The translations under genes were made by a program, and so were the position numbers. Shown piece by piece: positions 15,283 through 43,119 of a DNA stretch of 64,000 nucleotides. The notes below the pieces were generated by a model. That model did not search any database and had not been told where the DNA came from. It saw nothing but the letters and a program-made list of their open reading frames with translations. This stretch comes from an uncultured bacterium (GTDB lineage Bacteria; Bacillota; Clostridia; Oscillospirales; Ruminococcaceae). The DNA is taken from assembly GCA_905214265.1 (NCBI GenBank), contig CAJMLQ010000002.1:8182-72181 (forward strand), written 5' to 3'. Position 1 is the first letter of the stretch. Every line of letters begins with the position of its first letter.

Positions 15283-16557
15283 ATGACGGTAACCATTCCC
15301 TTTGGACGGACTGGCATGACGCTGGAGGATGATCTGCCCGGCGCGGAGATCCTGGAATCCCGGATCGGCGAACTGCGGGCCGCCGGCTCCGAGGACAGTT
15401 TGGTTCAGGAAGCCATGGCCAACCCTATCGGTTCTCCCACTTTGCGGGAACTGGCCCGGGGTAAGAAGACCTGTACGATCATTATCAGCGACCACACCCG
15501 ACCGGTCCCCAGCCGGCACATCCTGCCCTTTCTGCTTCGGGAGCTGCGGGAGGGAAGCCCGGATATCGGTGTGACCCTTTTGGTGGCTACCGGCTTTCAC
15601 CGGCCTTCCAGCGCAGAGGAACTGCGGCAGAAGCTGGGGGACGAAGTCTATGAGCGGGAAAAAATCGTCATCCACGACAGCCGGGATCCGGCCCGAAATG
15701 TGGATATCGGCGTACTGCCCTCGGGAGCCCGGTGTGTCATCGACCGCGCTGCGGCGGAGACCGACCTTCTGGTGGCGGAGGGCTTCATCGAACCCCACTT
15801 TTTTGCGGGTTTTTCCGGCGGGCGGAAAAGCGTCCTCCCCGGCGTGTGCGACCAGGTCACGGTGCTTGGGAATCACTGTGCCCGGTTCATCGCCTCTCCT
15901 CAGGCCCGGACAGGGGTTCTGGAGGGCAATCCTCTGCATAAGGATATGTTGGAAGCCTGCCGTCTGGCAAAGCTCGCTTATATTGTCAACGTCCTCATCG
16001 ACGAGGAGAAAAAGGTGGCCGCCGCCTTTGCTGGAGATCCGGTGCAGGCCCACGAGGCGGGTTGCCGCCTGCTGCTTCAATACTGCCAGGTGAAGCCGGA
16101 ACAGAAGGGAGATATCGTCGTTTCCAGCAACGGTGGTTATCCCCTGGACCAGAATATTTATCAAAGCGTCAAGGGTCTCACCGCCGCTGAAGCGGCTGCC
16201 GCGGAGGGAGCGGTGCTGCTGATGATCTCCGCCTGCGGAGACGGGGCGGGAGGGGACAGCTTTTACCGCGCTCTCCGGGACTGTACGTCTCCGGCGGCTC
16301 TCACTCAGGAAATTTTGGCCACCCCGCAGAACGAGACGAAGCCCGACCAGTGGGAGTACCAGATACTAGCCCGGATTCTCTGCAAGCACCGGGTGATTTT
16401 CATCACGGAGCCGGCCCAGCGTCAGACTATCCTAGACATGAAGATGGAATGGGCCCCGGACATCCATGAAGCCTTAGCCATGGCCAGGGCTGAAAAAGGC
16501 CCGGACGCCCACCTGGTGGTCATTCCCAATGGAATATCCGTCATGGTCCGTGAATAA
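15283..16557 (+). CDS. larA: LarA-family nickel-pincer-dependent lactate (2-hydroxyacid) racemase
   Basis: ISDHTRPVP motif, FFAGFSGGRKSVLPG (Lys that tethers the cofactor in LarA), and the GNH His region. About 424 aa. RBS GGAGG. Confidence 0.8.
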   Translation: MTVTIPFGRTGMTLEDDLPGAEILESRIGELRAAGSEDSLVQEAMANPIGSPTLRELARGKKTCTIIISDHTRPVPSRHILPFLLRELREGSPDIGVTLLVATGFHRPSSAEELRQKLGDEVYEREKIVIHDSRDPARNVDIGVLPSGARCVIDRAAAETDLLVAEGFIEPHFFAGFSGGRKSVLPGVCDQVTVLGNHCARFIASPQARTGVLEGNPLHKDMLEACRLAKLAYIVNVLIDEEKKVAAAFAGDPVQAHEAGCRLLLQYCQVKPEQKGDIVVSSNGGYPLDQNIYQSVKGLTAAEAAAAEGAVLLMISACGDGAGGDSFYRALRDCTSPAALTQEILATPQNETKPDQWEYQILARILCKHRVIFITEPAQRQTILDMKMEWAPDIHEALAMARAEKGPDAHLVVIPNGISVMVRE

Positions 16558-16597
16558 AGAGCATGCATTTTCAATATAAAAGGAGGTACGCGCAGAC

Positions 16598-18034
16598 ATG
16601 GCAAATTACAATCCAATAACCCCTGCAATTATTGACGAGCTTTCCAAAGTCGTCCCCGGTCGGGTCATCACTGGCGGCAGCGTCAACCCGGACTATGCCC
16701 GGGATGAAATGCCCATCTACGGTGTCCAGATGCCGGAAGTCGCCATCGACGTTCTCACCACCGAGGAGGTGGCGGGCATCCTTAAAATCTGTTATGAACA
16801 CAGTATCCCGGTCACCACCCGGGGAGCCGGAACCGGCCTGGTGGGTGGCTGTACGCCTATCTGCGGAGGTGTGGTCATCTGCACCGCCAAGATGAACCGG
16901 ATCCTCGCCTATGATCTGGAAAATTTCGCCGTAACCGTTCAGCCCGGCGTCCTGCTCCAGCAGCTGGCCGAAGATGCACTGGCCCATGGCTGCCTGTATC
17001 CTCCGGATCCGGGGGAAAAAATGGCGACTTTGGGCGGAAACGTGGCCACCAACGCCAGCGGAATGCGGGGGGTCAAATACGGCGCCACCCGGGATTACGT
17101 CAAGGCCATGACCGTCGTCCTCCCCAACGGAGAAGTCACCCGCTTCGGTGCCACGGTGTCCAAGACCAGTTCCGGCTACAGCCTTTTGAATCTGATGATC
17201 GGCTCGGAGGGCACCCTGGGCGTGATCACGGAACTGACCCTGAAGCTGATCCCCGCCCCCAAGGCCACGGTCAGCCTCATCGCCCCCTTTGCCAGTTTGG
17301 CGGCGTGTATCTCCACGGTTCCAAAGTTCAAAATGAACCATTTCGACCCCCAGGCCATCGAATTTTTTGAGAAAGAGATCCTGGTCTCCTCCGAGGAGTA
17401 TCTGGGCAAACAGGTCTTTCCCCGGCAGGTGGAAGGCGCTGATGTGGGCGCGTATCTGCTGATCACCTTCGACGGGGACAGCGCTGAGGGCCTGGAGCCG
17501 GTGATCACCCGGGCCGCCGAAATGCTGCTGGCGGAGGGCGCTCTGGACGTGCTGGTGGCTGATACGCCGCCCCGGCTCAAATCTGCCTGGGCTGCCCGTT
17601 CCTCCTTTCTGGAGGGCATCGAGGAGCAGACAAAGCTCCTCGATGAGTGCGACGTGGTGGTGCCGGTGCCCAAGATTCCCGACTACGTGGTTTTTGTGGA
17701 TGAGCTGGCCCGGGATTACGACTTCCGCGTCCAGTATTTCGGCCACGCCGGAGACGGCAACCTGCATATCTACGCCTGCTCCAACGATATGGAGCGGGAG
17801 GAATTTCTCCGCCAGGTGGATGGGTTCATGGGCCGGGTCTATGCCAAAGCCATGGAGCTGGGCGGCCAGATTTCCGGCGAGCACGGCGTCGGCATGGGCA
17901 AGGTCAAGTACCTGGCTGAAGCGGCCGGCCCCGCCAATATCGCCCTGATGCAGGGGATCAAGCGAGTCTTCGACCCCAAGCTGATCCTGAACCCCGGCAA
18001 AGTCTGCTTCAGCACAGAAGGAGGAGCCTTATGA
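16598..18034 (+). CDS. FAD-linked (GlcD/LctD-type) lactate dehydrogenase
   Basis: FAD PCMH-type N-terminal domain (VTTRGAGTGLVGG), C-terminal FAD-oxidase domain (GEHGVGMGK). RBS AAAGGAGG. Stop overlaps the etfB start. Confidence 0.85.
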   Translation: MANYNPITPAIIDELSKVVPGRVITGGSVNPDYARDEMPIYGVQMPEVAIDVLTTEEVAGILKICYEHSIPVTTRGAGTGLVGGCTPICGGVVICTAKMNRILAYDLENFAVTVQPGVLLQQLAEDALAHGCLYPPDPGEKMATLGGNVATNASGMRGVKYGATRDYVKAMTVVLPNGEVTRFGATVSKTSSGYSLLNLMIGSEGTLGVITELTLKLIPAPKATVSLIAPFASLAACISTVPKFKMNHFDPQAIEFFEKEILVSSEEYLGKQVFPRQVEGADVGAYLLITFDGDSAEGLEPVITRAAEMLLAEGALDVLVADTPPRLKSAWAARSSFLEGIEEQTKLLDECDVVVPVPKIPDYVVFVDELARDYDFRVQYFGHAGDGNLHIYACSNDMEREEFLRQVDGFMGRVYAKAMELGGQISGEHGVGMGKVKYLAEAAGPANIALMQGIKRVFDPKLILNPGKVCFSTEGGAL

Positions 18035-18837
18035 GAATTCTGATCTGCGTCAAACAGGTCCCGGACACCGCCGAAATCAAGATCGACCCCGTGACCAATA
18101 CCCTGATCCGCGAGGGCGTCCCCAGCGTGCTCAACCCCTATGACGGCTACGCGCTGGAGGCCGCCGCCCGCATCAAAGACCGTGTCCCCGGCGCCCATCT
18201 GACGGTGCTCACCATGGGCCCTCCCCAGGCTGAAGCTGCCTTGCGGGAGTGCCTGTCCACCGTCGCCGACAAGGCGTACCTGCTCACTGACCGGGCCTTC
18301 GGCGGCTCCGACACCTTGGCCACCAGCTACATCCTCGCTTCGGCAATCCGGCGGCTGGAGGAACTGGATGGACCCTTTGACATGATTTTCTGCGGCAAAC
18401 AGGCCATCGACGGAGACACCGCTCAGGTCGGCCCGGAAATCGCCGAACATCTGGGGCTTCCCCAAGTCACCTATGTGCTGGAGGTCCGGGAGGCCAGCGC
18501 CAGCAGTCTTCAGGTTCTCCGGGAAACTGAGGAAGGAAAGCAAGTAGTGGAAATCTGCTGCCCCTGCCTGGTCACCTTTACAAAGCCGGCCTTCGATCTG
18601 CGTTTTCCCAGCTTCCGGCGAAGGGCCGCTGCCCGCAGCGCGGAAATTCCCCATCTGGGAGCCGCGGACATTCCGGCTATCGACCTAACGCGCTCCGGGC
18701 TTAAGGGATCGCCCACGAAGGTGAAGCGAACCTTCGTGCCGCCCCGCAAGCAGTCGGGAGTCATCATTCGCGGAGAAACAGCAGAAAAGGCTGCGGAAAA
18801 ACTGGCCGAGGCGCTGAGCAGCGCCGGCGTGATATAA
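18031..18837 (+). CDS. etfB: Electron transfer flavoprotein beta subunit
   Basis: MRILICVKQVPDTAEIKIDP N-terminus and CGKQAIDGDTAQVGP motif. ATGA overlap with the dehydrogenase gene. Confidence 0.9.
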   Translation: MRILICVKQVPDTAEIKIDPVTNTLIREGVPSVLNPYDGYALEAAARIKDRVPGAHLTVLTMGPPQAEAALRECLSTVADKAYLLTDRAFGGSDTLATSYILASAIRRLEELDGPFDMIFCGKQAIDGDTAQVGPEIAEHLGLPQVTYVLEVREASASSLQVLRETEEGKQVVEICCPCLVTFTKPAFDLRFPSFRRRAAARSAEIPHLGAADIPAIDLTRSGLKGSPTKVKRTFVPPRKQSGVIIRGETAEKAAEKLAEALSSAGVI

Positions 18838-18850
18838 AGGGGGAGCCGTG

Positions 18851-19855
18851 ATGAAAGCAAAAACAAAAGATCTCTGGGTCTTTGTGGAGACCCGCGAGGA
18901 CGGCTCTGCGAAAAATGTAGGAATCGAGCTGCTCAACCCAGGCCGGGAGCTGGCCGACAAACAGGGCGGTGCTCTGGTGGCGTTGGTCGTCGGATGCGGC
19001 GTGGAGAAGGCCGCGGAAGAAGCGGCGGTCCACGGAGCAGACAGTGTTTTGGTGGTGGACAGCCCGGAATTCCGGGAGTATTCTACTGACGCTTATGCAG
19101 CTGCTCTGACGGCGCTGCTGGAGAAGTATGCACCTACCAGCATCCTCATCGGCGCTACCCCCAATGGCCGGGATTTGGGCCCCCGAGTGTCCTGCCGCCT
19201 GAATACCGGCCTCACCGCGGACTGCACCAATCTGGATGTGGATCCGGAAAGTGGTTGCGTCTGCTGGACCCGTCCCGCCTTCGGCGGAAACCTGATGGCG
19301 GTGATTCTCTGTCCCAACAATCGACCTCAGATGGGGACGGTGCGGCCCGGCGTCTTTAAAAAACCCCCCGTGACCGGCAAAAGGGCGGAGATCATCCGGG
19401 AGGACTTCCATTTTCCTGCCGGCGAGATCCGTACTCGGGTGCTGGAGACTATCCGCGAGGCGGCCGGCGAGTTGGTGAACCTGGAGGAAGCCGAAATCAT
19501 CGTCGCTGGAGGCCGCGGTGTGGGCTCCGCCGAAGGGTTTAAGGTCCTGCAGGAACTCTGTGACGCCCTGGGGGCCACACTGGCCTGTTCCCGTGCGGCC
19601 GTGGATGCAGGATGGATTAGCCATTCCCACCAAGTGGGCCAGACCGGTAAAAACGTCGGACCCAAGCTCTACATCGCCTGCGGCATCTCCGGCGCCATCC
19701 AGCACCTGGCGGGGATGAGCGCCTCCGGCTGCGTCGTGGCCATCAACAAGGACGCCGATGCGCCGATCTTCGGGGTGGCTGATTATGGCATCGTCGGCAA
19801 TCTTTTTGATGTAGTTCCCGTCCTCACTGCGGAGATCCGGAAGCTCCGAGGATGA
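18851..19855 (+). CDS. etfA: Electron transfer flavoprotein alpha subunit
   Basis: C-terminal FAD-binding [19 protein letters not shown] and [14 protein letters not shown] 18851 lies 7 nt after the G-rich RBS. No N-terminal ferredoxin domain. Confidence 0.9.
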
Positions 19856-19920
19856 GTTTTATTACAGACTGGGAATGGATCGGCTCGCTGCCAATTTTGC
19901 TCGTTTATTACAGAAAGCAG

Positions 19921-19950
19921 AAACCCGCTGGCCTAAGCCGGCGGGTTTTT
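19921..19950 (+). terminator. Intrinsic terminator after etfA
   Basis: CCCGCTGGC / GCCGGCGGG stem, CTAA loop, T5 run 19946-19950. Confidence 0.7.
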
Positions 19951-20083
19951 GCGACAATCCACAAAAATTTTTTGAAAAATAGTATACAATATTTCTCTAA
20001 AATGATTTGTCGAAAAAATCTTCCATTCCAGCAAAAAGAAAACCCCCGCCAATCAAAATCGGCAGGAGATTCCTTTGGGAAAA

Positions 20084-20118
20084 GGTTATGGTGTTGCTGA
20101 GAATAGTTTACCATAACC
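20084..20118 (-). terminator. Candidate terminator downstream of the GRE gene
   Basis: 9-bp stem GGTTATGGT / ACCATAACC, followed on the minus strand by TTTT (20080-20083). A second weaker hairpin plus T-run lies at ~20029-20066. Confidence 0.45.
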
Positions 20119-20224
20119 AGCCGGATGTTTCTGTTGAAATCTGTCGAAGGGAAACATTTTGCAGTTTTGCCAAGAAAGAATTCCCGGAATGACAGAACAT
20201 GCAAATGCGGCCTGGACAAAGAAG

Positions 20225-22369
20225 TCAAAAGCCGTTTAAAAACCGGTCTACGATCAATTGACGGAATTCTGGCGATAGCGTGGCAAAGTAGGCCGTAAAG
20301 CCGGTCACCCGGACGACTAGGTCGGGATAGAGATCGGGGTTTTTATGAGCAGCCAGCAGCTTTTCCCCATCCAGAACATTGATATTGATCAGTGTCCCGC
20401 CCAGTTCAAAGTGGGTGCGAATGAGTTCCATCACCCGCTGGACGCCGCCATCCTCTCTGGAGATCTGAGGATCAAATTCCAGTTGGAGGGGAGCCGTGTT
20501 CCCGTAGCCGGGCTGAACCCCCGCGATTCCAGTGGACATGGCCGTGACTGCGCCATCCCGGCGGAAACCGGGGTTGGGGTTTGCACCATGTGAGATGGGC
20601 GCGCCTGCCTTCCGGCCGTTGGGCGTTGCGCCGACGACGGAACCGAACTCAATGGTTTGCGACCAGGAGAACCATCCCGGGATAAGCTGGCGCTTTCCGG
20701 GCATGGGCTGAGCCTTGACCAGTTGGGTGAACACCTGGGTGATGCGCTTGGCCCAGCCGTCGGAGAGGCTTCCGCCTTGGCAGTACCGGTTAGAAGAAGA
20801 GAGCATGAGACGGATGCGTTCTCCGGCAGCACCGGCAAAATCCTGTTCCAGTGCGGCGAAAAGCTCGGACCAGGTCAAACGGCCTTCTTTTTCAATGCGC
20901 TGCTCCATGGCACCGAAGGAGTCGGCGGCTACTGCCAGCCCCGCACCGTCCACTCCGACAGTGAATAGGTCGGCGCACTGGGTGATGTCCTTCCCCTGCT
21001 CCAGTGTGTTGTGCATCATCAGGTTCATGACCAGCTCTGGCGTGACCTCCCATTGATGGTCCAAATGAAGATTGATCCCGGCGGCGGTAACCTCCACCGC
21101 TCTCTTCAGGTGAGCGGAGAACCGGCAGAACAGCTCTTCGCAAGAGGGATTCGGTGACTTTTTCATCTCCTTGAGAGCAACTTCCAGCACCTTGGCCACG
21201 TTGATTTTCACGGTGTCGTTCATGGGGCATTCCCGGCCGGGGACGCACATCCAGTGGCACCCCACCGCAATGCGGCTGCGGGCGGTAGCCTCGTCAAAGC
21301 CGTTTTTCATGTAGCCCTGGGACAGCGGCAGATCTCCGCAGAAGCGGGGCCATCCATTGCGGTCCTCAAAAAGATATTCTATCGCCTTGCGGAGAAATTC
21401 CGGATCACAGTCAGGGTGGACCCGCACCGTCAGATTGACGGCGATATTCAGGGAGTGGGCCGCTTCTAGAATGAGATAGGAAAACGGGTTGGTGATATCG
21501 CGCCCCTGTTCGTCGATGCCGGAGATCTGATAGTAATGAGGATCGATGAGCAATAGATTGGCCACCAGGAATCGGGCGGTATCCTGGTCCAGTATGCCTG
21601 CTGCTAGATCCTGTTCGTAATAGGGCAGCAAAAGCTGGTCCAGCTGAAATCCGGCCCCGTCCCGGGTGTAGATACGGGACACGCAGTTAAAATAGGCCAC
21701 CCACTGGCAGGTCTGCCAGAAGGTTTTGGGTGGATTTGAGAGGATCGCCTCATTGGCTTCCAGCATTTTTTGAAGGCTTTCCCGCAGCTCCGGACGCTCC
21801 TCAGTGGTTATAAGCCGCTGGATTTCCGCGATGTGCCGCCGGATAAAGCCCATGATTGAGAGGAGAACCCGTTCCTCCGCCTGGTAAAAGCCGTCGGGGT
21901 CGCCATTTTGGTCCCGGCAGCGCCGGACCTTTTCCAGCAGCCCGCCAAAGCCCAGCGAAAGGCCGATGCGATAATCGCAGGCCAGATGCGCGTCATTTTC
22001 AATGCCGGAGGAAATGTTGTAAAGCTCCTGCTCCGGCTTCAGACCGTCATAAGGGAAGCGCTGCTTATCCCAGCGCCGACCTCGCCGGTAGTTGGCCAGC
22101 ATATCCCGCCAGCGGCAGCAAAGCCGCTCCAAAGGGTCCACATAGACCGGGTGCTGGTCCAACAGGGCGCAGAAATTGTCCGCCATTCCCTGATACCCGT
22201 AGAATCCGCCGTCCGGGTTGTTGGGGATCGGGGTAAACGAGTAGCCCGGCGGGAAGGGAACCGTCCCGTAATCGTCGGCGTTCATATAGCCCTGCTGCTC
22301 CCGTTTGGCCAAGGTGTGGGCGATTTTCTTTTCCCGAAGGAGTCGGAGCCGATCTGTATCCGTCAACAT
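20225..22369 (-). CDS. Glycyl radical enzyme (PFL-fold), uncharacterised subtype
   Basis: C-terminal glycyl-radical motif VVRVTGFTAYF (Gly690). ATPNGRKAGAPISHG finger. Thiyl-Cys loop RIAVGCHWMCVPG (Cys371). ATG 22369 overlaps the activase stop by 7 nt. 714 aa. Confidence 0.9.
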   Translation of the reverse strand: MLTDTDRLRLLREKKIAHTLAKREQQGYMNADDYGTVPFPPGYSFTPIPNNPDGGFYGYQGMADNFCALLDQHPVYVDPLERLCCRWRDMLANYRRGRRWDKQRFPYDGLKPEQELYNISSGIENDAHLACDYRIGLSLGFGGLLEKVRRCRDQNGDPDGFYQAEERVLLSIMGFIRRHIAEIQRLITTEERPELRESLQKMLEANEAILSNPPKTFWQTCQWVAYFNCVSRIYTRDGAGFQLDQLLLPYYEQDLAAGILDQDTARFLVANLLLIDPHYYQISGIDEQGRDITNPFSYLILEAAHSLNIAVNLTVRVHPDCDPEFLRKAIEYLFEDRNGWPRFCGDLPLSQGYMKNGFDEATARSRIAVGCHWMCVPGRECPMNDTVKINVAKVLEVALKEMKKSPNPSCEELFCRFSAHLKRAVEVTAAGINLHLDHQWEVTPELVMNLMMHNTLEQGKDITQCADLFTVGVDGAGLAVAADSFGAMEQRIEKEGRLTWSELFAALEQDFAGAAGERIRLMLSSSNRYCQGGSLSDGWAKRITQVFTQLVKAQPMPGKRQLIPGWFSWSQTIEFGSVVGATPNGRKAGAPISHGANPNPGFRRDGAVTAMSTGIAGVQPGYGNTAPLQLEFDPQISREDGGVQRVMELIRTHFELGGTLININVLDGEKLLAAHKNPDLYPDLVVRVTGFTAYFATLSPEFRQLIVDRFLNGF

Positions 22370-23178
22370 GTTGTCACAACCTTTCCTGCAATGCGTACGG
22401 GAAACCCAGCGGCGCGGGCCAGCCATCCCATGGTTTCCGCGGAGGGAATTTCATACCGTGGCTCCTCTATCCCGGCGGCCGCCGCCTTTTGAAGTCCTAA
22501 GGGATGATAGGGGAGCAACTCATAGTAGCGCAGATGGGAAAGCCCCTGCGCAAAGCCTGCAATCGCCCCGATCTCTTCCGGTGTGTCGTTGACCCCGGGG
22601 ATGACGGGCGTGCGGAGAACCAGGGGAATCCCCAATTCGTCCAGCCGGCGAAGATTTTCCAGAATCAGTTGGTTGGATACGCCGGTGACCTCACGGTGTA
22701 GGTTGTCGTCCCAGACCTTCAAATCGGCCATGACCAGCCCGCACTGGCGTAGGACCGGCTCCGCCGTCTTCCAAGGCGCGAAAAGGGACGTTTCTACAGC
22801 CGTAGAGATTCCTTCGCCCCGGCAGGCCGCCAGAAGCTCCCGGGAAAAATCCGCCTGAAAGAGCGGTTCTCCGCCGGAAAGGGTCATTCCGCCGCCGTCG
22901 CCGTAGTAGGGCCGGTCCCGGCAGATCTCATCCAAAACCTCTTCCACCGTCATCTCCCGGCCGCAGACGACCTGTGCCCCGGAAAAGCAGCCGCTCTCAC
23001 ACTGGCCGCAGCCGATGCACCGTTCCGGATAGCGCAGGATCTGGGGTTTCGGGTCGATGCACTCGGGATTGTGGCACCACTGGCAGTGCAGGGGACAACC
23101 CTTGCAGAACACCGTCGTCCGCAGGCCCGGTCCGTCGTGGACGGAGGCCCGCTGGATGTCTGCGATGATCCCATTCAT
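22363..23178 (-). CDS. Glycyl-radical enzyme activating enzyme (radical SAM)
   Basis: CPLHCQWCHNPE radical-SAM cluster plus a ferredoxin-like CIGCGQCESGC insert. RBS GGAGGTGGAG before ATG 23178. The track's 23265 start is a TTG extension. Confidence 0.9.
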   Translation of the reverse strand: MNGIIADIQRASVHDGPGLRTTVFCKGCPLHCQWCHNPECIDPKPQILRYPERCIGCGQCESGCFSGAQVVCGREMTVEEVLDEICRDRPYYGDGGGMTLSGGEPLFQADFSRELLAACRGEGISTAVETSLFAPWKTAEPVLRQCGLVMADLKVWDDNLHREVTGVSNQLILENLRRLDELGIPLVLRTPVIPGVNDTPEEIGAIAGFAQGLSHLRYYELLPYHPLGLQKAAAAGIEEPRYEIPSAETMGWLARAAGFPVRIAGKVVTTC

Positions 23179-23344: not shown

Positions 23345-24457
23345 TTATGGCAATACGCTCTCCACCGGTTCCTCCCGGCCGCTGCGGGCGGAGGCCATGG
23401 CCGCGTCCAGCAGGGCCAGCACCTGGACGTTTTGCTCCAGCGTGACGGTGGGATGGAAAGGCGTGCCCTCCATCCGGTGGGCCGCGTAGTGCCAAGCCAT
23501 GTTGCGGAATCGGTCCGGCAGCTCCAGGACCGGGATCTCCAGGGGATTCCCCAGCCGATCCACCGCTCGGAGCCGGAGTCCGCCGTTTTCCCGGACGTAA
23601 AAGATCACCCCGTCCCGGCAGAAGACGGTGGGTCCTCCAGGGATCGCCGCCTGCGGGACGGTCCAGGTCCCTTCCGCCGTGGTCATGGCGTGAGGATAGC
23701 GGATCAGAAGGGCCACATTGTCGGGACAATCGGCCTCCGGCGTGCCCAAGTTCATGGCCAGAGCCCGGACGCCGCAGGCTGGTTCCGGCTGGAACCAGCG
23801 GCTGTACATGCAGCCGTAGCAGCCGATATCCAGAAACGCGCCGCCGCCGTACCGGGCGTTGTACCACCAGGTGTGGGCCCGCTGCTCCGGCGTCATCTCC
23901 TCCGCGGCGGCGGAGACGCCCCGATGCCGGGCACCGGTCCCCAGGGGACCGGTGTGGCCGTTTAAGTAGGAGAGCTTCAGAAGCGGCCCGGCGGTTTCCA
24001 GCTCCAGGGCCTGCTTCAGCTGATGCCCCGTGGGCCGCCAGGTGGTAGGCCAGTTGACCACCGCCTCGATGCCGGTCTCCTGGACGATTTTCCGGATGCG
24101 GAGGGCTTCGGAGAGGGAAGCGGCCATGGGCTTCTCGATGCAGACATCGACTCCCCGGCAGGCGCATTGCTCTACGGCCGCCGGTTTTCCGGCGTTGTCG
24201 GTGAGGATGTAGGCAATGTCCGGCTTCACGGTGTCCAGCAGCTCCTCCACTGTGGCAAAATAGGGAACCTGATAGGTCTCGCAGACATTTCTCCGGTTCC
24301 AGGCTCGGGTGTAGCGGCCCTGAGTCTGCTCCTCCAGCTCCAGAGGAATATCGGTGCAGCCGGCAAGCTCGGTGTCCGGCTGCTCGGAGAGATAAAGAGC
24401 GATTTCATTGACATGCATGTGGGCGAACCCGATAATGACAGCTTTAATGGGCTTCAT
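23345..24457 (-). CDS. Gfo/Idh/MocA-family oxidoreductase (paralog 4, degenerate dinucleotide loop)
   Basis: N-terminus KAVIIGFAHMHVN in place of GxGxxG/A. IEKP motif. Overlaps the upstream gene by 14 nt. Confidence 0.8.
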   Translation of the reverse strand: MKPIKAVIIGFAHMHVNEIALYLSEQPDTELAGCTDIPLELEEQTQGRYTRAWNRRNVCETYQVPYFATVEELLDTVKPDIAYILTDNAGKPAAVEQCACRGVDVCIEKPMAASLSEALRIRKIVQETGIEAVVNWPTTWRPTGHQLKQALELETAGPLLKLSYLNGHTGPLGTGARHRGVSAAAEEMTPEQRAHTWWYNARYGGGAFLDIGCYGCMYSRWFQPEPACGVRALAMNLGTPEADCPDNVALLIRYPHAMTTAEGTWTVPQAAIPGGPTVFCRDGVIFYVRENGGLRLRAVDRLGNPLEIPVLELPDRFRNMAWHYAAHRMEGTPFHPTVTLEQNVQVLALLDAAMASARSGREEPVESVLP

Positions 24458-25577
24458 AGTGCTTCAACTCCTCCGCGCGGACCTCCCGGCCTTCTTCTGC
24501 CGAGCGGTAGTAGCATTCGATGGCCTTGCTGACCTCCAGGTTTTGCTCCGGCGTGATAAGGTACTCCGCCTTCCCGGCCAGAACGTCCAGAATGTGCTCA
24601 TACATGTACCAGTGCTGTTCAAAGGGCGTACCCTTGTACGCGCCGTTGTCGAACCATTTCATGGCGGTTTCGGACTGGAATTTCCCCACGTTGCGGTAAA
24701 GAGTCTCCCCATTGACGGACAAGCCGCCCCGGTCGCCGCAGATAACCATATTCAAGTTGGTGGTGGGGAGGTTGACGGCCCACGAAAACTTGAAATTGAC
24801 GGTGAAGCCCCCTTCCAGCCGGAGAAAACCGGTGGAAAACTCCTCCACGGAAAACTCTGCCGGATCATAGGGCCGGGGGGTGAAGGTGCCGCTGTAAGCA
24901 CCGCTTTCCGCGATGCTGATAAGGACCTCATCTCCGCGGTTGGCGATCTTCCGGTAAGCCGCACCGCTGACTGCCTGGACCTTGGGGCTTCCCACGATCC
25001 ACAGCAGGGAGTCGATGAGATGGACGCCCAGATCGCAGAAGGGCCCGCCGAAATTGTGCTCCTTCATGTGGAACATCCCCCAGGTGGGAATGCCACAGCG
25101 GCGGATGAAGGAGATGTCGGAGAAATAGGGTGTTCCCAGTTCCCCGCTGTCCACCAGGTATTTGGACTGCTGCATGTAGTTGCGCCAGCGCATGCACTGG
25201 CAGGGGAAGAGCCGCTTTCCGCAGGCGGCGGCCACGGCGAACATTTCCTCCGCGTCAGCCAGAGAAACGGCCATTGGCTTTTCGCAGGCCACGTCCGCCC
25301 CGGCACGGAGGGCAGCTAGGGTCCACTGCTTGTGGTAAACGTTTGGTGTGCAGACCGAAACAAAGTCCGGCTTCAGTTCGTCGAGCATTTTTTGAGGATC
25401 GGTGTACCATTTGGGAATATCATGGCGCTTGGCGGTTTCTTCCGCCGCCTCCGGCCGGATATCCGCGATGCCGATGACTTCTGCCAGTCCCTTTTTGCGG
25501 AGGTTGCCGATGGCGGGGAGATGGGCGGCGTTGGCGATCATCCCCGCGCCGATGAGTGCGATCCGGAGCTTTTTCAT
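24444..25577 (-). CDS. Gfo/Idh/MocA-family oxidoreductase (paralog 3, canonical)
   Basis: RIALIGAGMIANAAHLP Rossmann start and CEKP motif. ATGA overlap with the upstream gene. Confidence 0.85.
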   Translation of the reverse strand: MKKLRIALIGAGMIANAAHLPAIGNLRKKGLAEVIGIADIRPEAAEETAKRHDIPKWYTDPQKMLDELKPDFVSVCTPNVYHKQWTLAALRAGADVACEKPMAVSLADAEEMFAVAAACGKRLFPCQCMRWRNYMQQSKYLVDSGELGTPYFSDISFIRRCGIPTWGMFHMKEHNFGGPFCDLGVHLIDSLLWIVGSPKVQAVSGAAYRKIANRGDEVLISIAESGAYSGTFTPRPYDPAEFSVEEFSTGFLRLEGGFTVNFKFSWAVNLPTTNLNMVICGDRGGLSVNGETLYRNVGKFQSETAMKWFDNGAYKGTPFEQHWYMYEHILDVLAGKAEYLITPEQNLEVSKAIECYYRSAEEGREVRAEELKHYEAH

Positions 25578-26647
25578 GCAGGTTCCTCCTCAAATGGATT
25601 TCGGACAGCCTCCGTCCGGCCGCTTTCGCAGGAGCGGATGCCGGCGTCCAGGGCGGCCTGGACCTTCAGATTGAAGGCGGGTTCCACCAGTTCGAAAAGG
25701 GGCGTTCCTTTTCCCAGGTGGTCTAAAAAATTGCGTCCGATGTTGTCTCCCGATACCGTGTCGTATTCCTCATCTGGTTGGGTGAAGCCGTGGGAGGCCC
25801 CGCGGTAGACCCGGACGGTGCTGGAATGGCGGTCGGCGACGATGGTTCCCTCCGTTCCGTAGATCACCGGGCCGGAAGGGATTTCCCCGCTGTTGAAGGT
25901 GGACCAGGAACCCTCAAGGAATCCCACGGAATCGCCAAAGTCTAGCAAGAAAGCAGAGTAGTCTTCCACATCGCTGAAGGGGACGAGAAAATTCTTGCGC
26001 ATACCGCTGACTCGCTTCGCCATCCCCCCCAGAAACCAGGTGGTGAGTAGGCAACCGTACCCGGCGTAATCCATAATGGAGCCACCGCCCCGGCTGTGCT
26101 GGTACCACCAGTGCTGGGAGAGCTCCTCCTGCTGGCCGTAGGAGAAGGGCCCGGTGGTGGCGGGGCTGCGGTAGTGGCAGCGCAGAGGACGGCCGATCTT
26201 TCCGGCGGCGACCAGCTCTCGGGCTTTTCGGAAGGAGCCGAACCAGGCCACCGGCCAATTGACGGCCAGCGCCGCGCCGGAGGCCCTGGCCGCCCGGCAC
26301 ATGGCAAGCCCGTCCTCCAGGGAGAAGGCCATGGGTTTCTCCACAACAACGTGGATACCACGGGAGAGAAGCTCACAGACTACCTCTCCGTGGCTCCGGA
26401 CATCGCTGCACACAAGGGCGATGTCCGGCCCTTGCGCCAGCAGATCCCGGTAATCGGCATAAAGCCTTGGGGGATCCGGGACGTTCATGCTCAGAGCCAT
26501 TCGTTTCTCCGGCCCCTCCGGGTGGAAAGGCGGCATGTCGGCGCAGCCCAACCACTCCACCTCGTCCAGATACCGGTTAAAGTCGTGGTACAGGATCTGC
26601 GCATGGACATGGGCCAGGCCAATGACGGCAATTTTCCATTTTTTCAT
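25574..26647 (-). CDS. Gfo/Idh/MocA-family oxidoreductase (paralog 2, degenerate dinucleotide loop)
   Basis: KIAVIGLAHVHAQ N-terminus and VEKP motif. RBS AGGAGGAAC. Confidence 0.8.
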   Translation of the reverse strand: MKKWKIAVIGLAHVHAQILYHDFNRYLDEVEWLGCADMPPFHPEGPEKRMALSMNVPDPPRLYADYRDLLAQGPDIALVCSDVRSHGEVVCELLSRGIHVVVEKPMAFSLEDGLAMCRAARASGAALAVNWPVAWFGSFRKARELVAAGKIGRPLRCHYRSPATTGPFSYGQQEELSQHWWYQHSRGGGSIMDYAGYGCLLTTWFLGGMAKRVSGMRKNFLVPFSDVEDYSAFLLDFGDSVGFLEGSWSTFNSGEIPSGPVIYGTEGTIVADRHSSTVRVYRGASHGFTQPDEEYDTVSGDNIGRNFLDHLGKGTPLFELVEPAFNLKVQAALDAGIRSCESGRTEAVRNPFEEEPA

Positions 26648-26659
26648 AGCAGTTCCTCC

Positions 26660-27757
26660 TTAAAAAAATGTTTTGAGGGAAACCAGTCCGCCGGTCTGAA
26701 TGGCCTCGGGAATGGCGCACATGATCTCGATGACGTGGCGGGCCTGCTCCGGGGAGAGAAGGGGGTCTGTGTCCGTTTCGATGGCCCGGATGATGTCCGC
26801 CAGACAACAGCACTGAGTAAAATGAGCCGGACGGGTGCTTTTCACCCAGGTCTGTGGCTCCATCCATCCGCGGAGGCCCAGCTGGGGAGAGTCGATGTAG
26901 ACTTTGGGATTGGGCCAGACGCCGTTGTGGGGTTCAAAGGAGATGGTGCCCCGATCGCCGTAGATCTCCATGGGGACGCAGCGGGTGGCGCGCTGGGTGA
27001 AGCCGGTGTCCACGAAGCCGATGCGGTCGCCGCCGAAATCCAGGGTGATGTAGTAGGTGTCTGGCATCTGGTCAGTGCGGATCACCTGGCCGTCCAGAGC
27101 CCCGGAACGGATGGTGCGGGTCTTGAGGGCGTTGGCGGCCATGCAGCCCACCCGCTTGGCTGGACCCATGACGCCGGTGACCTTGTGAAGGGCGTGGACC
27201 CCCATGTCGTAAAGGGCGCCGGCCCCGGGCTGGTAAAACCAGGAGGGATCGGAATCTCGGTACTGGAAGTACTCCGGCCCACCATGGGTGGATACGCATT
27301 TGACCGAGAGTACATCGCCGATGGCCCCGTCGGCGATCATCTGTTTGGCCATGAGCATGTCAGGGGTCATCATGTGGATGGGGACGCAGCAGAATTTCAC
27401 CCCGGCTTTTTTCGCGGCCTCCATCTGCTGGGTCATCTGCTCGACCGTGGGAGCGGCGGGTTTCTGGGAAATCAGGTGCTTTCCAGCCTGCAGCACCGCC
27501 ATATTGATCTCATGGTGGGCTGGGATCGAGGCTGCGTCGATGGCAATGTCGAATTCACCCCAGTCAAGAAGCTCCTCCACACTGGAAAACCACCGGGGAA
27601 TACCGTACTTCTCCGCCGCGTCCCGGGCCCGTTCCGGGATGATGTCACAGGCGGCGGCGCACTCCGCGTTGGCCGTCTGGGCGATGTGGGGAAAATACTG
27701 CCAGTTTGCGAAAGAGCCGCTGCCGATGACTGCGACCCGCCATTTGCGCTGTTCCAT
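26660..27757 (-). CDS. Gfo/Idh/MocA-family oxidoreductase (paralog 1, canonical)
   Basis: RVAVIGSGSFANW Rossmann start and SQKP motif. RBS GAAGGAGGAAAAA. First gene of the leftward unit. Confidence 0.85.
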   Translation of the reverse strand: MEQRKWRVAVIGSGSFANWQYFPHIAQTANAECAAACDIIPERARDAAEKYGIPRWFSSVEELLDWGEFDIAIDAASIPAHHEINMAVLQAGKHLISQKPAAPTVEQMTQQMEAAKKAGVKFCCVPIHMMTPDMLMAKQMIADGAIGDVLSVKCVSTHGGPEYFQYRDSDPSWFYQPGAGALYDMGVHALHKVTGVMGPAKRVGCMAANALKTRTIRSGALDGQVIRTDQMPDTYYITLDFGGDRIGFVDTGFTQRATRCVPMEIYGDRGTISFEPHNGVWPNPKVYIDSPQLGLRGWMEPQTWVKSTRPAHFTQCCCLADIIRAIETDTDPLLSPEQARHVIEIMCAIPEAIQTGGLVSLKTFF

Positions 27758-27786: not shown

Positions 27787-27815
27787 TTTACAATCATAGC
27801 GCAGAGGATTATAAT
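27787..27815 (+). promoter_or_regulatory. Candidate promoter of the AraC regulator (TTTACA-17-TATAAT)
   Basis: TTTACA 27787-27792, 17-nt spacer, TATAAT 27810-27815. The -10 sits in the palindrome ATTATAAT, which also reads TATAAT on the minus strand. Confidence 0.45.
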
Positions 27816-27871
27816 TGAAAATAAACAAAGCAGCCGGATCGATGCACAATCTGAACATAGGGGGGACTGCG

Positions 27872-28819
27872 ATGCTTTTTCGCCTCAGTCTGGAGCGCCC
27901 GCTTCTTGTCCGGGACTTCTACAAGATTCGCCGCAACACCGTCTGGAGCCAGGCGGACCAAAATCACATTCTGGTGGCGGTCACAGAGGGGGAATGTATC
28001 TTCACCATCGAAGGGGAGGACTATCCGGTGGGTCGGGGAGGTCTTTTCTTTATCCCTGCCAACCAGCTTTACCGGCGCAGGCCCAAGGACGGCGCGGTCT
28101 GCGAGTTTTTTTACGTCCATTTTTCAGCGGAGGCTCCGGTGGAGGCCGTGGGGGAAGAGGTCCCTCTGGAACAGGCAAGGCGGCTCCGATCGGAGATTTT
28201 TGCTGACCTGACCCGCAGCGACTACCGGACGTCGGTCCTCTCCACCGATGCATTTTTGGCATATTCCAATTATGCCGGGGAGTACACGGACGACGTCCTG
28301 AACCAGCTGGAGGCGGCGCTGGCGGAGGTACTCCGGGGGGACGTGGAGAGCTCTATGCTGATTTCCCTGCGGGTCTCCCTGGTCCTGGCCCTGTTGACCC
28401 GGTGCTGTTTCAACAGCCTGCTCTCCGGGGAAAGCACCGCTGTGGACGGCCGGTACCCCGCCCGTATCAAAAAAGCGCTGTTGTATATCCGTCAAAATTA
28501 CACCCGGAAGATCACCCTGGAGGAGCTGAGCCGGTACTGCAGCGTCACGCCTCAGCATTTGGCACGCCTTTTCCGTGAGGAGCTTCAGATTTCACCCATC
28601 CAGTACATCAACCGGCTGAAAATCTCCTATTCCAAGGAGCTACTGCGCACCACCAGCCTCTCAGTTAAGGAGGTGGCTGATCATCTGGGGTTCGAGAACG
28701 CCTCCTATTTCAGCCGGTTGTTTCATAAGCTGGAGGGTATTTATCCCACGGATTTTCGCCTGCGGCTGGCTGTTTATCAGGATACCGACCGGCTTCTCCG
28801 CCGGAAGGATGAGGACTGA
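27872..28819 (+). CDS. AraC-family transcriptional regulator with N-terminal cupin sensor domain
   Basis: Cupin segment ILVAVTEGECIFTIEGEDYPVGRGGLFFIPANQLY. C-terminal HTH LEELSRYCSVTPQHLARLFRE...VADHLGFENASYFSRLFHKLEGIYPTDF. ATG 27872 follows a G-rich RBS. 27815 and 27842 are alternative starts. Confidence 0.85.
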   Translation: MLFRLSLERPLLVRDFYKIRRNTVWSQADQNHILVAVTEGECIFTIEGEDYPVGRGGLFFIPANQLYRRRPKDGAVCEFFYVHFSAEAPVEAVGEEVPLEQARRLRSEIFADLTRSDYRTSVLSTDAFLAYSNYAGEYTDDVLNQLEAALAEVLRGDVESSMLISLRVSLVLALLTRCCFNSLLSGESTAVDGRYPARIKKALLYIRQNYTRKITLEELSRYCSVTPQHLARLFREELQISPIQYINRLKISYSKELLRTTSLSVKEVADHLGFENASYFSRLFHKLEGIYPTDFRLRLAVYQDTDRLLRRKDED

Positions 28820-40717: not shown

Positions 40718-41461
40718 TTACAGGCTCTTCCCACCGTCCACATAAATGCTCTGTCCGGTGATGTACCGTCCTTCTTTGGAGCAGAGCAGCCGGACGATCC
40801 CCGCGCAGTCCTCCTTCTCCCCGTAAAAGCCCATGGGAATCAGGCTGGACACTACCCGGGCATATGCTTCGTCGCTGAGGGCCTCCCGATTGCGGTCGGT
40901 ATTGATAACGCCGGGGGCTACATTGTTGACGGTGATACCGTCAGGAGCCAGCTGCCCAGCCAGTGAGCGGACAAAAGCAGTCTGCCCCGCCTTTGACGCT
41001 GCATAGACCAGCATTTCCGGGTGGGGCTTTGCTTCCTGGACGCTGCCGATGGTGACGATGCGGCCCCATCCCTTTTTCCGCATGGCGGGGACCGCCCCCT
41101 GAATGAGCAGCAGGGAAGCCAGCATGTTGCAGTCCACCTGTTGACGGAAATCTGAAACCGTCAGGCTTTCCCAGTCCTTTTTTATCTGGACAGATGCGTT
41201 GAGAACCAGAATGTCCACCTCTCCCACCTGGGCCATCAGCCCGGCCGCTTCTTCCAGATTGGTCAGATCTGTCTGGAAGACTTCGGCGCGGCGGCCCATG
41301 GCGGCAATCTCATCGGCAGTTTCCCGGGCGCGGGCAATGTTCCCGGCACAGTGGACAGCGATATCCGCACCGCCCCGGGCCAGCTCCAGGGCAATGGCGC
41401 TGCCGATCCCCCGGCTGGAGCCGGTGACCAGCGCGCGTTTCCCTGTCAGGTCAAATTCCAT
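40718..41461 (-). CDS. SDR-family oxidoreductase
   Basis: TGSSRGIG cofactor motif and YAASKAG catalytic YxxxK. ATG 41461 has better RBS spacing (AGAGGAG) than 41470. Confidence 0.85.
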   Translation of the reverse strand: MEFDLTGKRALVTGSSRGIGSAIALELARGGADIAVHCAGNIARARETADEIAAMGRRAEVFQTDLTNLEEAAGLMAQVGEVDILVLNASVQIKKDWESLTVSDFRQQVDCNMLASLLLIQGAVPAMRKKGWGRIVTIGSVQEAKPHPEMLVYAASKAGQTAFVRSLAGQLAPDGITVNNVAPGVINTDRNREALSDEAYARVVSSLIPMGFYGEKEDCAGIVRLLCSKEGRYITGQSIYVDGGKSL

Positions 41462-41485
41462 AAAAGGCATCTCCTCTTTCCAGTG

Positions 41486-42178
41486 TCAGTGGACAGCAGC
41501 CAGAATTTCCTCCGGCGTAACCGGCCGCCCCAGCTCCATGATGTATCCGTGCCGCCCCCGGGAGGTGTATACCTCCGGGTCCTCCGTGTTGCTGGCGAAC
41601 ATTCCGTAATGGGTGGGGATCGCCGCTTGGGGGCGCAGTACCTCTGTCAGACGGGTGGCCTCCTCCGCATTCATGTTTCCCAGCTTGCCGTTGATGCAGA
41701 CGAAAAGGAATTCCGGCTTTTCCGCGGCCATCTCCTCCAGCCGGGGATTCCACAGAGTATCCCCGGTGAAGTAAAAGCTCTGGCCACCCCACTTTGCCAG
41801 TACGCCAATGGCATCGATGGAGTGGTTCGCAAAGACCGCCGTGAAGGCGAACGGTCCTACTGTTATTGTATCACCCAGGTCAAGGGAGTGGATGCGGACG
41901 CAGCCCAGCTCCTCCAAATGCTTCCGGCAGGAAGACGGCGCATAGAAATCGATGTGCTCCCTGTCCATCCGGCGGATAGCGTCGGGATCCAGATGATCTA
42001 GATGGTCGTGGGTGCAGATCACCGCTCCGGAAACCTCCTTCGGCAGAATGGGCGGTTCCACCATCCGGGGCCGCCCCGCCGCATGGTTCACAGCGTCGGA
42101 AAGATAGGGATCCAGAAATATCTGGGTGCCGCTGTCCTCCAGCAGGTATCCGCTCTGGCCAAGCCAGGTAATGGTCAT
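41486..42178 (-). CDS. MBL-fold metallo-hydrolase (UlaG/lactonase-like)
   Basis: VICTHDHLDHLD (HxHxDH) metal motif. About 230 aa. Confidence 0.8.
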   Translation of the reverse strand: MTITWLGQSGYLLEDSGTQIFLDPYLSDAVNHAAGRPRMVEPPILPKEVSGAVICTHDHLDHLDPDAIRRMDREHIDFYAPSSCRKHLEELGCVRIHSLDLGDTITVGPFAFTAVFANHSIDAIGVLAKWGGQSFYFTGDTLWNPRLEEMAAEKPEFLFVCINGKLGNMNAEEATRLTEVLRPQAAIPTHYGMFASNTEDPEVYTSRGRHGYIMELGRPVTPEEILAAVH

Positions 42179-42189
42179 AAAAAACCTCC

Positions 42190-43104
42190 TTACAGCGCAG
42201 TCTGGGTGTCATTGGGGTCACCATTGCGAGCCAGCTCGTATTCCCTGGACCAGTCCAGATCTCGGTATTCCTCGCCCCGGGGATCCGTCCGGATCCATTC
42301 CAGCAGCAGGTCCAGCATCTCCTCCGTCCAGGTATTGCGGTCGATTTGGGCGGTGGTGAAGCGGTTCTGGGCGATCATTTCAAAGCCGAAATCATCCTTG
42401 ACGTGAGTTTTCGCCGCGCCCTCCACCACGTCGGCCACCAGATGGCTGGGGATAAACAGCACGCCGCCGCCGGCTCCGAAAACCACGTCCCCGGGCAGGC
42501 AGACCGCCCCGCCGAAGTTGGTAATGGTGTTGAATCCGGTCATGACGAATTCCCGGATGGGAGTGGGGTCGATGCCCCGATAGTACACCTGGACGCCCTC
42601 CACTTTTTTCATCTGCTCCACATCCCGGACGCCGCCCCAGATCACCGCTCCGCCGCTTTTGGTGCGGGTTTTGATAGCGGTAGTCAGGTTCCCGCCCACA
42701 AAGGTGCCTTTGTAGATCTTGTCGTACATATCGGCCACCACCACGTCGCGTTCCATCAGAGAGTCGATAACCCACTGGTTATAATTTCCACGGCGGCACT
42801 CCTCCGAACCTTTCTGGAACATCCGCTCGTGGAGGTCAGGGCGTGTGGGGCAGAAATTGCAGGTCACTGCCCGGCCCACCAGCTTCCGGCCATCGTCGTG
42901 GAGAGCCTGGAGGGGAGCCCGCCCTCCTCCCACAAACTGATTTTCGTATCCCAGCACGAAGATGGGCTTCCACACCTCCTCCAGGGTCATGCCGTAGAGG
43001 GCGTCCAGGTATTTATCCGCCACTCTTGGCCGCCCGTCGGGCAGCCGTTCGCCCTCCCATTGAGGCGTCAGAGCAATGATCTCTTCCCGGTCGTTGAAAT
43101 TCAC
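42190..43104 (-). CDS. RraA-family protein (class II aldolase/decarboxylase-like), extended form
   Basis: GGAVIWGGVRDVEQM and CLPGDVVFGAGGGVLFIP motifs of the RraA / 4-hydroxy-2-oxoglutarate-aldolase-type fold. At 304 aa it is longer than typical RraA. Confidence 0.7.
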   Translation of the reverse strand: MNFNDREEIIALTPQWEGERLPDGRPRVADKYLDALYGMTLEEVWKPIFVLGYENQFVGGGRAPLQALHDDGRKLVGRAVTCNFCPTRPDLHERMFQKGSEECRRGNYNQWVIDSLMERDVVVADMYDKIYKGTFVGGNLTTAIKTRTKSGGAVIWGGVRDVEQMKKVEGVQVYYRGIDPTPIREFVMTGFNTITNFGGAVCLPGDVVFGAGGGVLFIPSHLVADVVEGAAKTHVKDDFGFEMIAQNRFTTAQIDRNTWTEEMLDLLLEWIRTDPRGEEYRDLDWSREYELARNGDPNDTQTAL

Positions 43105-43119
43105 AGAAACTACCTCCTT

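Follow-up and report, generated by a model that had tools for sequence, protein, structure and literature searches.

The only characterized glycyl radical enzymes (GREs) that act on a sugar ring are, to our knowledge, PflD (E. coli and Streptococcus) and YbiW (E. coli), which isomerize 1,5-anhydromannitol-6-phosphate and 1,5-anhydroglucitol-6-phosphate. All characterized GRE 1,2-eliminases and isomerases keep a C-x-E loop, whose glutamate is hydrogen-bonded to a substrate hydroxyl; in PflD and YbiW this residue deprotonates the C2-OH, and mutagenesis has demonstrated that it is essential in CutC and IslA (PMC13450708). Two cysteines occur on the loop only in pyruvate formate-lyase (PFL) and TdcE, and entire clades of the superfamily are still unannotated, according to a review published in June 2026 by the groups of Drennan, Andorfer, and Backman (PMC13450708). 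Here we describe a GRE in which tryptophan occupies the position of the glutamate, together with its operon and its relatives. It is encoded in a 64,000-nucleotide stretch of an uncultured Ruminococcaceae bacterium (contig CAJMLQ010000002.1, positions 8,182 to 72,181), which is referred to below as the window and supplies all position numbers.

The catalytic loop and the C-x-W clade

The gene (20225-22369, minus strand) encodes a protein of 714 amino acids (aa), identified as a GRE of the C-x-W clade by Pfam, phmmer, AlphaFold2, and Foldseek. Its catalytic loop VGCHWMCVPG (V369-G378; 21236-21265, minus strand) contains Cys371 (21257-21259), Trp373 (21251-21253), and Cys375 (21245-21247). Cys371 is invariant across the family and corresponds to the catalytic cysteine of PflD, glycerol dehydratase (GD), A. 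fulgidus PFL2, HypD, and YbiW. Trp373 is aligned with the C-x-E glutamate of PflD and GD by phmmer and with that of all these proteins in family-profile alignments, and it is retained in each of the 120 close homologs, 25 clade representatives, and 86 loci considered below. An earlier interpretation made without database searches (the sequence-only reading) had noted that the loop has neither the second cysteine of PFL nor the glutamate of the eliminases, and indeed no alignment places a Glu or a Cys-Cys pair at the canonical position. As judged from these alignments, the replacement of Glu by Trp is not an artefact.

The consensus of the loop among the homologs is G-C-N-W-M-(C/A)-V-P-G. Of the three residues that the sequence-only reading had considered diagnostic, only the tryptophan at position +2 relative to the catalytic cysteine is invariant. 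The histidine at +1 of the query is a minority state, Asn being usual among the 120 homologs, and the cysteine at +4 alternates with Ala, with Ser also found in the clade; Cys(+4) occurs in a subclade with the GCQWYC loop as well. Both residues were considered as candidate catalytic groups and rejected, since both positions are variable.

The protein had been thought to be an orphan. However, a search of 5.8 billion proteins yielded more than 120 clusters of homologs, 714-741 aa in length and 62-93% identical to the query, among Clostridia, Oscillospiraceae, Monoglobaceae, and related metagenome-assembled genomes (MAGs). A genome scan added gut and rumen MAGs, Bacterium 0.1xD8-71, which was cultured from the mouse gut, and a MAG of Rhodothermales (45% identity). 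More distant relatives were collected from a library of 50%-identity representatives (4421 GREs, 671 of them at E<=1e-30), and 82 full-length representatives among the best 150 were aligned. The C-x-W loop, in the forms GCHWW, GCQWM, GCFWY, GCQWY, GCGWY, and GCYWY, persists down to approximately 28-33% identity, and C-x-E is observed only beyond this level. The 25 C-x-W representatives make up an exclusive clade on the neighbor-joining tree, a distance tree of representatives, and their position with respect to known enzymes is based on PDB and NCBIfam scores; ten representatives of this clade scored below the cut-off of every curated family. On this sequence evidence, C-x-W is a large, monophyletic, and uncharacterized branch of PFL-like GREs, and it is not described in the literature that we consulted on GREs associated with Gfo/MocA proteins, inositol, C-glycosides, fucose, or anhydroglucitol. 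One member from the representative library, P0128 (1052 aa), is a natural fusion of an activase (approximately residues 1-295; TIGR02494, 305.7 bits) with a C-x-W GRE (GCNWF). Another loop variant, Y-G-C-C-N-P-H-L-P-G with two cysteines, was encountered in environmental GREs with approximately 30% identity to P0153 (L098, L104, L106, L112-L114, and L116).

The region preceding the catalytic cysteine had also been singled out as short. Compared with PFL, GD, and CutC, it is in fact reduced by 48, 62, and 118 residues, respectively, but this feature is not distinctive, because the query lacks an insertion of about 24 aa that is present in most family members (738 aa), and a length of 700-740 aa is shared by many C-x-E GREs.

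The change from Glu to Trp is correlated with changes at positions 445, 385, 569, 597, and 631, all of which switch together with it in the alignment of representatives. Position 445 (codon 21035-21037, minus strand) is Glu in 25 of 25 C-x-W representatives and in none of the 48 C-x-E representatives, which have Thr, Ser, or Asp; in the 117 fetched loci (86 C-x-W and 31 other GREs) it is Glu in 86 of 86 and 0 of 31, respectively. This C-x-W-specific invariant residue is a candidate for a relocated acid/base. Asp385 (21215-21217, minus strand), aligned with Asp447 of GD, is found in all 25 C-x-W representatives and in 85 of the 86 C-x-W loci, compared with 13 of 48 C-x-E representatives. Position 569, two residues past the site aligned with Tyr640 of GD, is Trp in 18 of 25 C-x-W proteins and mostly Val, Phe, or Met in the C-x-E group; position 597 is Asn in 20 of 25 and mostly Ser in C-x-E; position 631 is acidic or His in C-x-W and mostly Lys or Arg in C-x-E. 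His128 (21986-21988, minus strand) is conserved in both groups and is aligned with His164 of GD, the proton donor to the leaving group (PMC13450708).

The remaining features of the protein are those of a GRE whose radical apparatus is intact. It has the Pfam domains PFL-like (8.7e-79) and Gly_radical (6.8e-15) and contains the motifs VVRVTGFTAYF and GATPNGRKAG. The radical site Gly690 (20300-20302, minus strand) lies 319 residues after Cys371, in the segment RVTGFTAYF, which is kept in 119 of 120 homologs (RVTGF in all 120). In comparison with the published fingerprint of the glycyl radical domain, RVxG[FWY]x6-8[FL]x4Qx2[IV]x2R (PMC13450708), the query reads RVTGF-TAYFAT-L-SPEF-R-QL-I-VD-R, the sole mismatch being Arg703 (20261-20263, minus strand) at the Gln position, with Gln704 adjacent to it. 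The F-R-Q-L sequence is characteristic of the query subfamily, whereas a distant C-x-W subclade retains the canonical Gln. The AlphaFold2 model, computed with 59 family sequences as input, has pLDDT 89.4 and pTM 0.90, and Foldseek matched it to GRE eliminases and isomerases with probability 1.00 and TM-scores of about 0.80-0.83. The radical domain, the catalytic cysteine of the finger loop between the half-barrels, the ten-stranded beta/alpha barrel, and a radical-SAM activase of its own are all those of the GRE superfamily (PFL-like, IPR004184), and the storage residue is Gly690 rather than the Ala, Ser, or Thr of aminoacyl radical enzymes. The sequence-only reading, in which the 714-aa protein was called a GRE, thus agrees with the Pfam domains, motifs, fold, and adjacent activase, and its positions for the loop, Cys371, and Gly690, as well as the spacing between the latter two, are all correct. 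Judging from this conservation, the protein is almost certainly a functional enzyme of an uncharacterized clade.

The operon and its linkage to carbohydrate genes

The GRE gene is the last in an operon on the minus strand, in the order Gfo1, Gfo2, Gfo3, Gfo4, activase, GRE, followed by an intrinsic terminator (20043-20068, minus strand; an 11-bp stem and a T-run). Its translation probably starts at ATG 22369 and not at the upstream ATG 22426 (733 aa), because the relatives begin with MLT. This start is overlapped by the stop codon of the gene for the radical-SAM activating enzyme (22363-23178, minus strand, in an open reading frame (ORF) open to 23265), which scores 283.5 bits with TIGR02494 against a cut-off of 174 and has the motifs CPLHCQWC (CX3CX2C) and CIGCGQCESGC. 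The activase likely begins at Met30 (23178) rather than at the listed TTG (300 aa), since its relatives are 254-284 aa long, and it adjoins the GRE gene in 29 of 31 loci of the query subfamily. It has a single ferredoxin-type CX2CX2CX3C motif; activases of GRE eliminases often have two. A 106-aa ORF at 19908-20228 (minus strand) was considered as a possible small subunit and rejected, as it has no Pfam match, is AT-rich, and contains the operon terminator. This ORF, with a TTG start and a 4-base overlap with the GRE stop codon (20225-20228), is almost certainly spurious.

The four upstream genes encode proteins that belong to the Gfo/Idh/MocA family of oxidoreductases. Gfo1 (26660-27757, minus strand), the first gene of the operon, is preceded by the ribosome-binding site GGAGG and is similar to DgpA1 (9m3d, 1.6e-24). 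Gfo2 (25574-26647, minus strand), which only some of the loci possess, has low similarity to scyllo-inositol dehydrogenase and 1,5-anhydrofructose reductase. Gfo3 (24444-25577, minus strand) is a homolog of the sugar 3-oxidoreductase DgpA (7xr9, E=2e-51), with 33% identity over 348 aligned positions along the full length and with the EKP and GGPxxDxGxH motifs retained. DgpA itself is a C-glycoside 3''-oxidoreductase of gut bacteria that oxidizes the C3-OH of the sugar using tightly bound NAD(H) (10.1101/816074; PMC9939296). Gfo4 (23345-24457, minus strand), directly upstream of the activase gene, is divergent: the N-terminal sequence IIGFAHMH replaces the usual GxGxxG-type dinucleotide-binding motif, and the best PDB match is only 4e-07. 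It is conserved at 44-55% identity and occupies the same place in most loci, and of the four Gfo genes it has the tightest coupling to the activase gene. Its role may be that of a partner that is non-canonical or not engaged in redox chemistry.

The neighborhoods of the GRE genes were surveyed using Pfam-annotated gene calls and hidden Markov model (HMM) searches of six-frame segments. A Gfo/Idh/MocA gene, detected with the family HMM, is located within 5 kb of the GRE gene in 23 of 31 loci of the query subfamily, compared with 3 of 40 distant C-x-W loci (Fisher p = 6e-9) and 2 of 20 loci of other GREs (p = 8e-6). The Gfo module is also present in the Rhodothermales locus L027. Identity across loci is 72-77% for Gfo3 versus 61-64% for the GRE. 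The linkage is correlated with the loop sequence, being observed in 18 of 19 loci with Cys(+4) and in 4 of 10 with Ala(+4) (p = 0.003). Other neighbors in the subfamily are related to glycans, namely GH78, GH2, and GH38 proteins, a heparinase-II/III-like protein, a protein with the pectate-lyase fold, and lacto-N-biose phosphorylase; NanA-like and HpcH aldolases and sugar ABC transporters were found as well, and four loci add an AP_endonuc_2 TIM-barrel protein that is closest to hydroxypyruvate and 2-oxo-tetronate isomerases.

Among the loci without Gfo genes we looked for a shared partner; FAA-hydrolase, GlcNAc-2-epimerase, and DUF386 genes are not common to them, and only a NanA-like DHDPS gene recurs (L003 and L036). 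In these two Ala(+4) loci the NanA-like aldolases (L003:338-1234 and L036:8067-8963) are 76% identical to each other, and with 225 bits they fall short of the N-acetylneuraminate lyase cut-off (281). In L003, an FAA-hydrolase in duplicate, DUF386, and a protein of the GlcNAc-2-epimerase family are encoded as well. This context hints that the substrate of the Ala(+4) subgroup may be different, possibly a sialic-acid-like compound or a keto-deoxy-acid.

A second type of sugar linkage is observed in the SGCQWYC subclade, whose GREs are approximately 30% identical to the query and abundant in metagenomes of sediments, wetlands, and peat (loci L038-L086, L094, and L100; for example, L064:8001-12282 and L083:1776-7170). 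In its 51 loci the neighbors include the activase (46 loci), an AraC-family regulator (18), the L-fucose:H+ symporter FucP (16; TIGR00885, 397.8 bits, cut-off 280.4), and a GH29 alpha-L-fucosidase (15; 3e-91), and a URO-D-like protein sometimes flanks the GRE. Such a genomic context suggests that the enzyme of this subclade may act on L-fucose itself, and therefore the C-x-W superclade as a whole appears to be sugar-linked.

Upstream of the operon in the window there is a divergent gene for an AraC-family regulator (27815-28819, plus strand), and AraC genes recur upstream of the module in relatives. Beyond it are genes for an FAD-dependent oxidoreductase (PF12831; 28907-30172, plus strand), an ABC transporter for sugars, and an alpha-mannosidase of family GH38, and the locus is surrounded by genes of glycan utilization. 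The PF12831 gene is a recurrent but not universal neighbor, with homologs in L010, L011, L017, and L033 (47-50% identity) and one with 96% identity in the near-identical locus L007; in L011 it is located between the activase and GRE genes.

On the other side, converging with the GRE operon, a lactate-utilization cluster (15283-19855, plus strand) encodes the LarA lactate racemase (590 bits, above the cut-off), a GlcD-like FAD oxidase, and EtfB/EtfA. Its GlcD-like and Etf genes have the same position in L007 (CAKXAF010000031.1, 13.8 kb), where the gene order is conserved: all 11 genes that were matched, a set that starts with the FAD oxidoreductase, includes the GRE (92% identical to the query), and ends with the Etf and GlcD-like proteins, have 83-97% identity to their counterparts in the window. 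This contig was deposited as a MAG of an 'uncultured thaumarchaeote', but it is probably a mis-binned bacterial contig, since all other relatives are from Clostridia. A separate operon at 40718-44466 (minus strand) resembles a non-phosphorylative sugar-acid pathway and encodes a short-chain dehydrogenase/reductase similar to L-rhamnose/glucose 1-dehydrogenases, a metallo-beta-lactamase-fold protein (possible lactonase), an RraA/HMG-aldolase-like protein, and a sugar-acid dehydratase of the enolase superfamily similar to galactonate dehydratase (191 bits).

Possible reaction of the enzyme and alternative explanations

Since the tryptophan is fixed and the radical machinery and activase are kept across phyla, the C-x-W clade must reach its chemistry in another way than through the C-x-E glutamate. 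The different chemistry suggested in the sequence-only reading is plausible, because this glutamate is the essential base in every characterized eliminase and isomerase (PMC13450708); on the other hand, the clade-specific Glu445 and Asp385 may allow the same chemistry with relocated residues. With slightly less than even confidence, we propose that the query GRE would be a sugar-acting radical enzyme that cleaves a C-O bond using a rebuilt acid/base set. A carbohydrate substrate is probable when taken separately, whereas C-O cleavage as the specific reaction is more doubtful than not. The substrate, freed from glycans, could be a neutral sugar or a keto-sugar, for which a pyranose, an anhydro-sugar, and a cyclitol are the candidates, and the DgpA-like dehydrogenases would fix the oxidation state of a ring carbon in the substrate or product, before or after the radical step. 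The thiyl radical of Cys371 would take a carbinol hydrogen, and Trp373, taking the position of the glutamate, would stack against the sugar ring, probably together with Trp569 and Phe567 of the neighboring strand; aromatic stacking is typical of carbohydrate-binding sites. Proton transfers would be performed by His128, Asp385, and Glu445, and the radical would collapse via C-O cleavage, either by dehydration or by ring opening as in PflD and YbiW, to yield a deoxy-keto product that could then be handled by ordinary enzymes.

Several observations weigh against this proposal. The assignment of Glu445, Asp385, Trp569, and the family-specific Arg236-Asp237 to the active site may be correct, but they are candidates only; in the model Glu445 belongs to a helical stretch that separates strands 6 and 7 of the barrel, so that its role may be structural. 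The gene neighborhood does not separate dehydration from ring opening or C-C cleavage. Approximately one fourth of the subfamily loci have no Gfo genes and have heterogeneous neighbors, and, as the Gfo linkage is confined to one subfamily, it does not explain the loss of the glutamate in the whole clade. For the same reason, with Gfo genes in only 3 of 40 distant loci, we rejected, as far as the whole clade is concerned, the idea that DgpA-type oxidation introduces a 3-keto group that acidifies the hydroxyl of the substrate radical and makes the glutamate dispensable; this idea may hold for the query subfamily only. Finally, no function is assigned to the clade in curated families, solved structures, or the literature, including the June 2026 review.

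The similarity to GD might instead suggest an eliminase of small diols or amino alcohols, acting on a polyol or aldehyde fragment downstream of sugar cleavage by ordinary ketyl elimination, with Glu445 or Asp385 replacing the C-x-E glutamate. His128 and Asp385 match His164 and Asp447 of GD, the glycerol and propanediol dehydratases are among the best sequence and fold matches, an invariant clade-specific glutamate is available, and aldolases are encoded in some loci. We nevertheless consider this improbable, given the tight and often overlapping linkage of the GRE gene to genes for sugar-ring dehydrogenases such as the DgpA homolog, and given that in the distant subclade the GRE adjoins FucP and the fucosidase, neither an aldolase nor a kinase being placed between it and uptake. 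Small-diol GREs are accompanied by microcompartment and aldehyde dehydrogenase genes, and neither type of gene was found in the neighborhoods examined. The loop could also be explained if the enzyme were a C-C lyase of the PFL type, with the thiyl radical adding to the carbonyl of a keto-sugar made by the Gfo enzymes and Cys375 acting as the second thiol. Such an addition needs no general base, as in the mechanism of PFL (PMC13450708), and Cys(+4) is enriched in the Gfo-linked loci as well as present in the GCQWYC subclade. Yet this cysteine is replaced with Ala or Ser in many members, including the Gfo-linked loci L016, L027, and L037, the operon has no partner for acyl transfer to CoA or phosphate, and PFL is very distant, so that we give this mechanism a small probability.

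An equally small probability is assigned to a radical deglycosylase, in which the GRE would take the place of the DgpB/C lyase and cleave the C- or O-glycosidic bond between the aglycone and the sugar in a 3-keto-glycoside made by Gfo3. The resemblance of Gfo3 and Gfo1 to DgpA and DgpA1, whose chemistry has been described (10.1101/816074; PMC9939296), and the lack of a DgpB/C-type AP_endonuc_2 gene in the operon of the window are consistent with this role. However, some loci contain both an AP_endonuc_2 gene and the GRE, the TIM-barrel protein being similar to keto-acid isomerases and not to DgpC, and the high conservation of Gfo3 and the GRE in very different glycan contexts points to one small common substrate rather than to varied aglycones. 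Loss of the canonical glutamate might, lastly, indicate a catalytically dead or purely structural homolog, but this is hardly credible, as hundreds of sequences show no variation in the Gly motif, the cysteine, and the finger loops, 29 of 31 subfamily and 38 of 40 distant loci keep a dedicated activase gene beside the GRE gene, and purifying conservation extends across phyla.

A broader generalization of the proposed sugar-acting enzyme would make the C-x-W superclade a new mechanistic class of GREs acting on unphosphorylated sugars by means of a tryptophan platform and the relocated Glu445/Asp385 pair, with radical sugar catabolism being widespread in anaerobes of the gut and of sediments; from the present sequence comparisons this appears unlikely, although less so than the alternatives above. 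Example substrates of such a class would be L-fucose for the subclade linked to FucP and GH29 and, for the query subfamily, an anhydro- or keto-sugar that is processed jointly with the DgpA-like dehydrogenases. In any case, the clade offers a natural experiment in the control of radical intermediates by GREs, and its genomic wiring points to carbohydrates, on which only the two GREs mentioned above are so far known to act. Members of the family are common in Clostridia of the human, rodent, and ruminant gut and in sediments, and thus its reaction could be a quantitatively relevant and unrecognized step in anaerobic degradation of glycans or plant glycosides. A clonable operon, specific residues, and a cultured carrier provide handles for testing.

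Comparison with known GRE classes and sugar pathways

The sequence-only reading had matched the loop residues to no characterized GRE, and the database searches likewise gave no characterized GRE that matches the protein. Even the best solved relatives are only 18-22% identical in structure alignments, no characterized GRE exceeds 50% identity, and all NCBIfam equivalogs are missed by a wide margin: their scores do not exceed 219 bits, whereas the cut-offs are about 1000 (274 bits against 678 for TIGR01774). The glutamate of the C-x-E eliminases and isomerases is replaced by Trp373, and the whole clade is alike in this respect. The loop G-C-H-W differs from the C-C of the formate lyases PFL and TdcE, and the TIGR01255 score is 59 bits against a cut-off of 994. 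The GRE decarboxylases HPAD, IAD, and PAD are likewise distant (89-110 bits against 1100-1150; no Glu at +2 in the query), and the operon has no gene for an HPAD-type small subunit. Among the X-succinate synthases, the match to BSS (4pkc) is limited to the C-terminal part (3e-10), that to MasD has 5e-23, and no ORFs for small subunits of this type were found at the operon. A comparison of the operon with the E. coli genome gave no match.

PflD and YbiW are the best solved matches to the query in both sequence and profile searches (8yjo, 4e-57 with phmmer and 2.4e-71 with the profile). They have the same fold, with TM-scores within the range given above and an identity of only about 22%, and both these enzymes and the query locus are linked to carbohydrates. 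Unlike the query, they keep C-x-E. The query locus has no partners such as a phosphotransferase system (PTS), a kinase, or an aldolase, and has Gfo/Idh/MocA dehydrogenases instead; therefore, its substrate is probably unphosphorylated.

The B12-independent GD is matched at 7e-49 (1r8w), and the glycerol and 1,2-propanediol dehydratases 9rco and 5i2g are matched in fold (TM-score 0.82-0.83). The query keeps the equivalents of His164 and Asp447 together with the ATPxGR finger, but has Trp373 for Glu435, and the active-site strand N-G-H-S (His281/Ser282) of GD corresponds to the family-invariant T-R-D-G-A-G. PFL and TdcE share the PFL-like and glycyl radical Pfam domains with the query, yet only the C-terminal segment of about 160 residues can be aligned (1e-18), and the query has no adjacent Cys-Cys.

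As for known sugar pathways, the operon resembles the DgpA/DgpBC system of C-glycoside degradation in having the DgpA homolog Gfo3 and the DgpA1-like Gfo1, and several relatives recall this system further by the addition of an AP_endonuc_2 TIM-barrel protein; however, the operon itself lacks a DgpB/C pair. The DgpA/DgpBC, levoglucosan Lgd, and BT2156-2160 pathways are purely heterolytic and have no radical enzyme, whereas the operon described here contains a GRE. What is new, within the known GRE superfamily, is thus a superclade whose catalytic loop has been rebuilt and whose genomic context is wired to carbohydrates.

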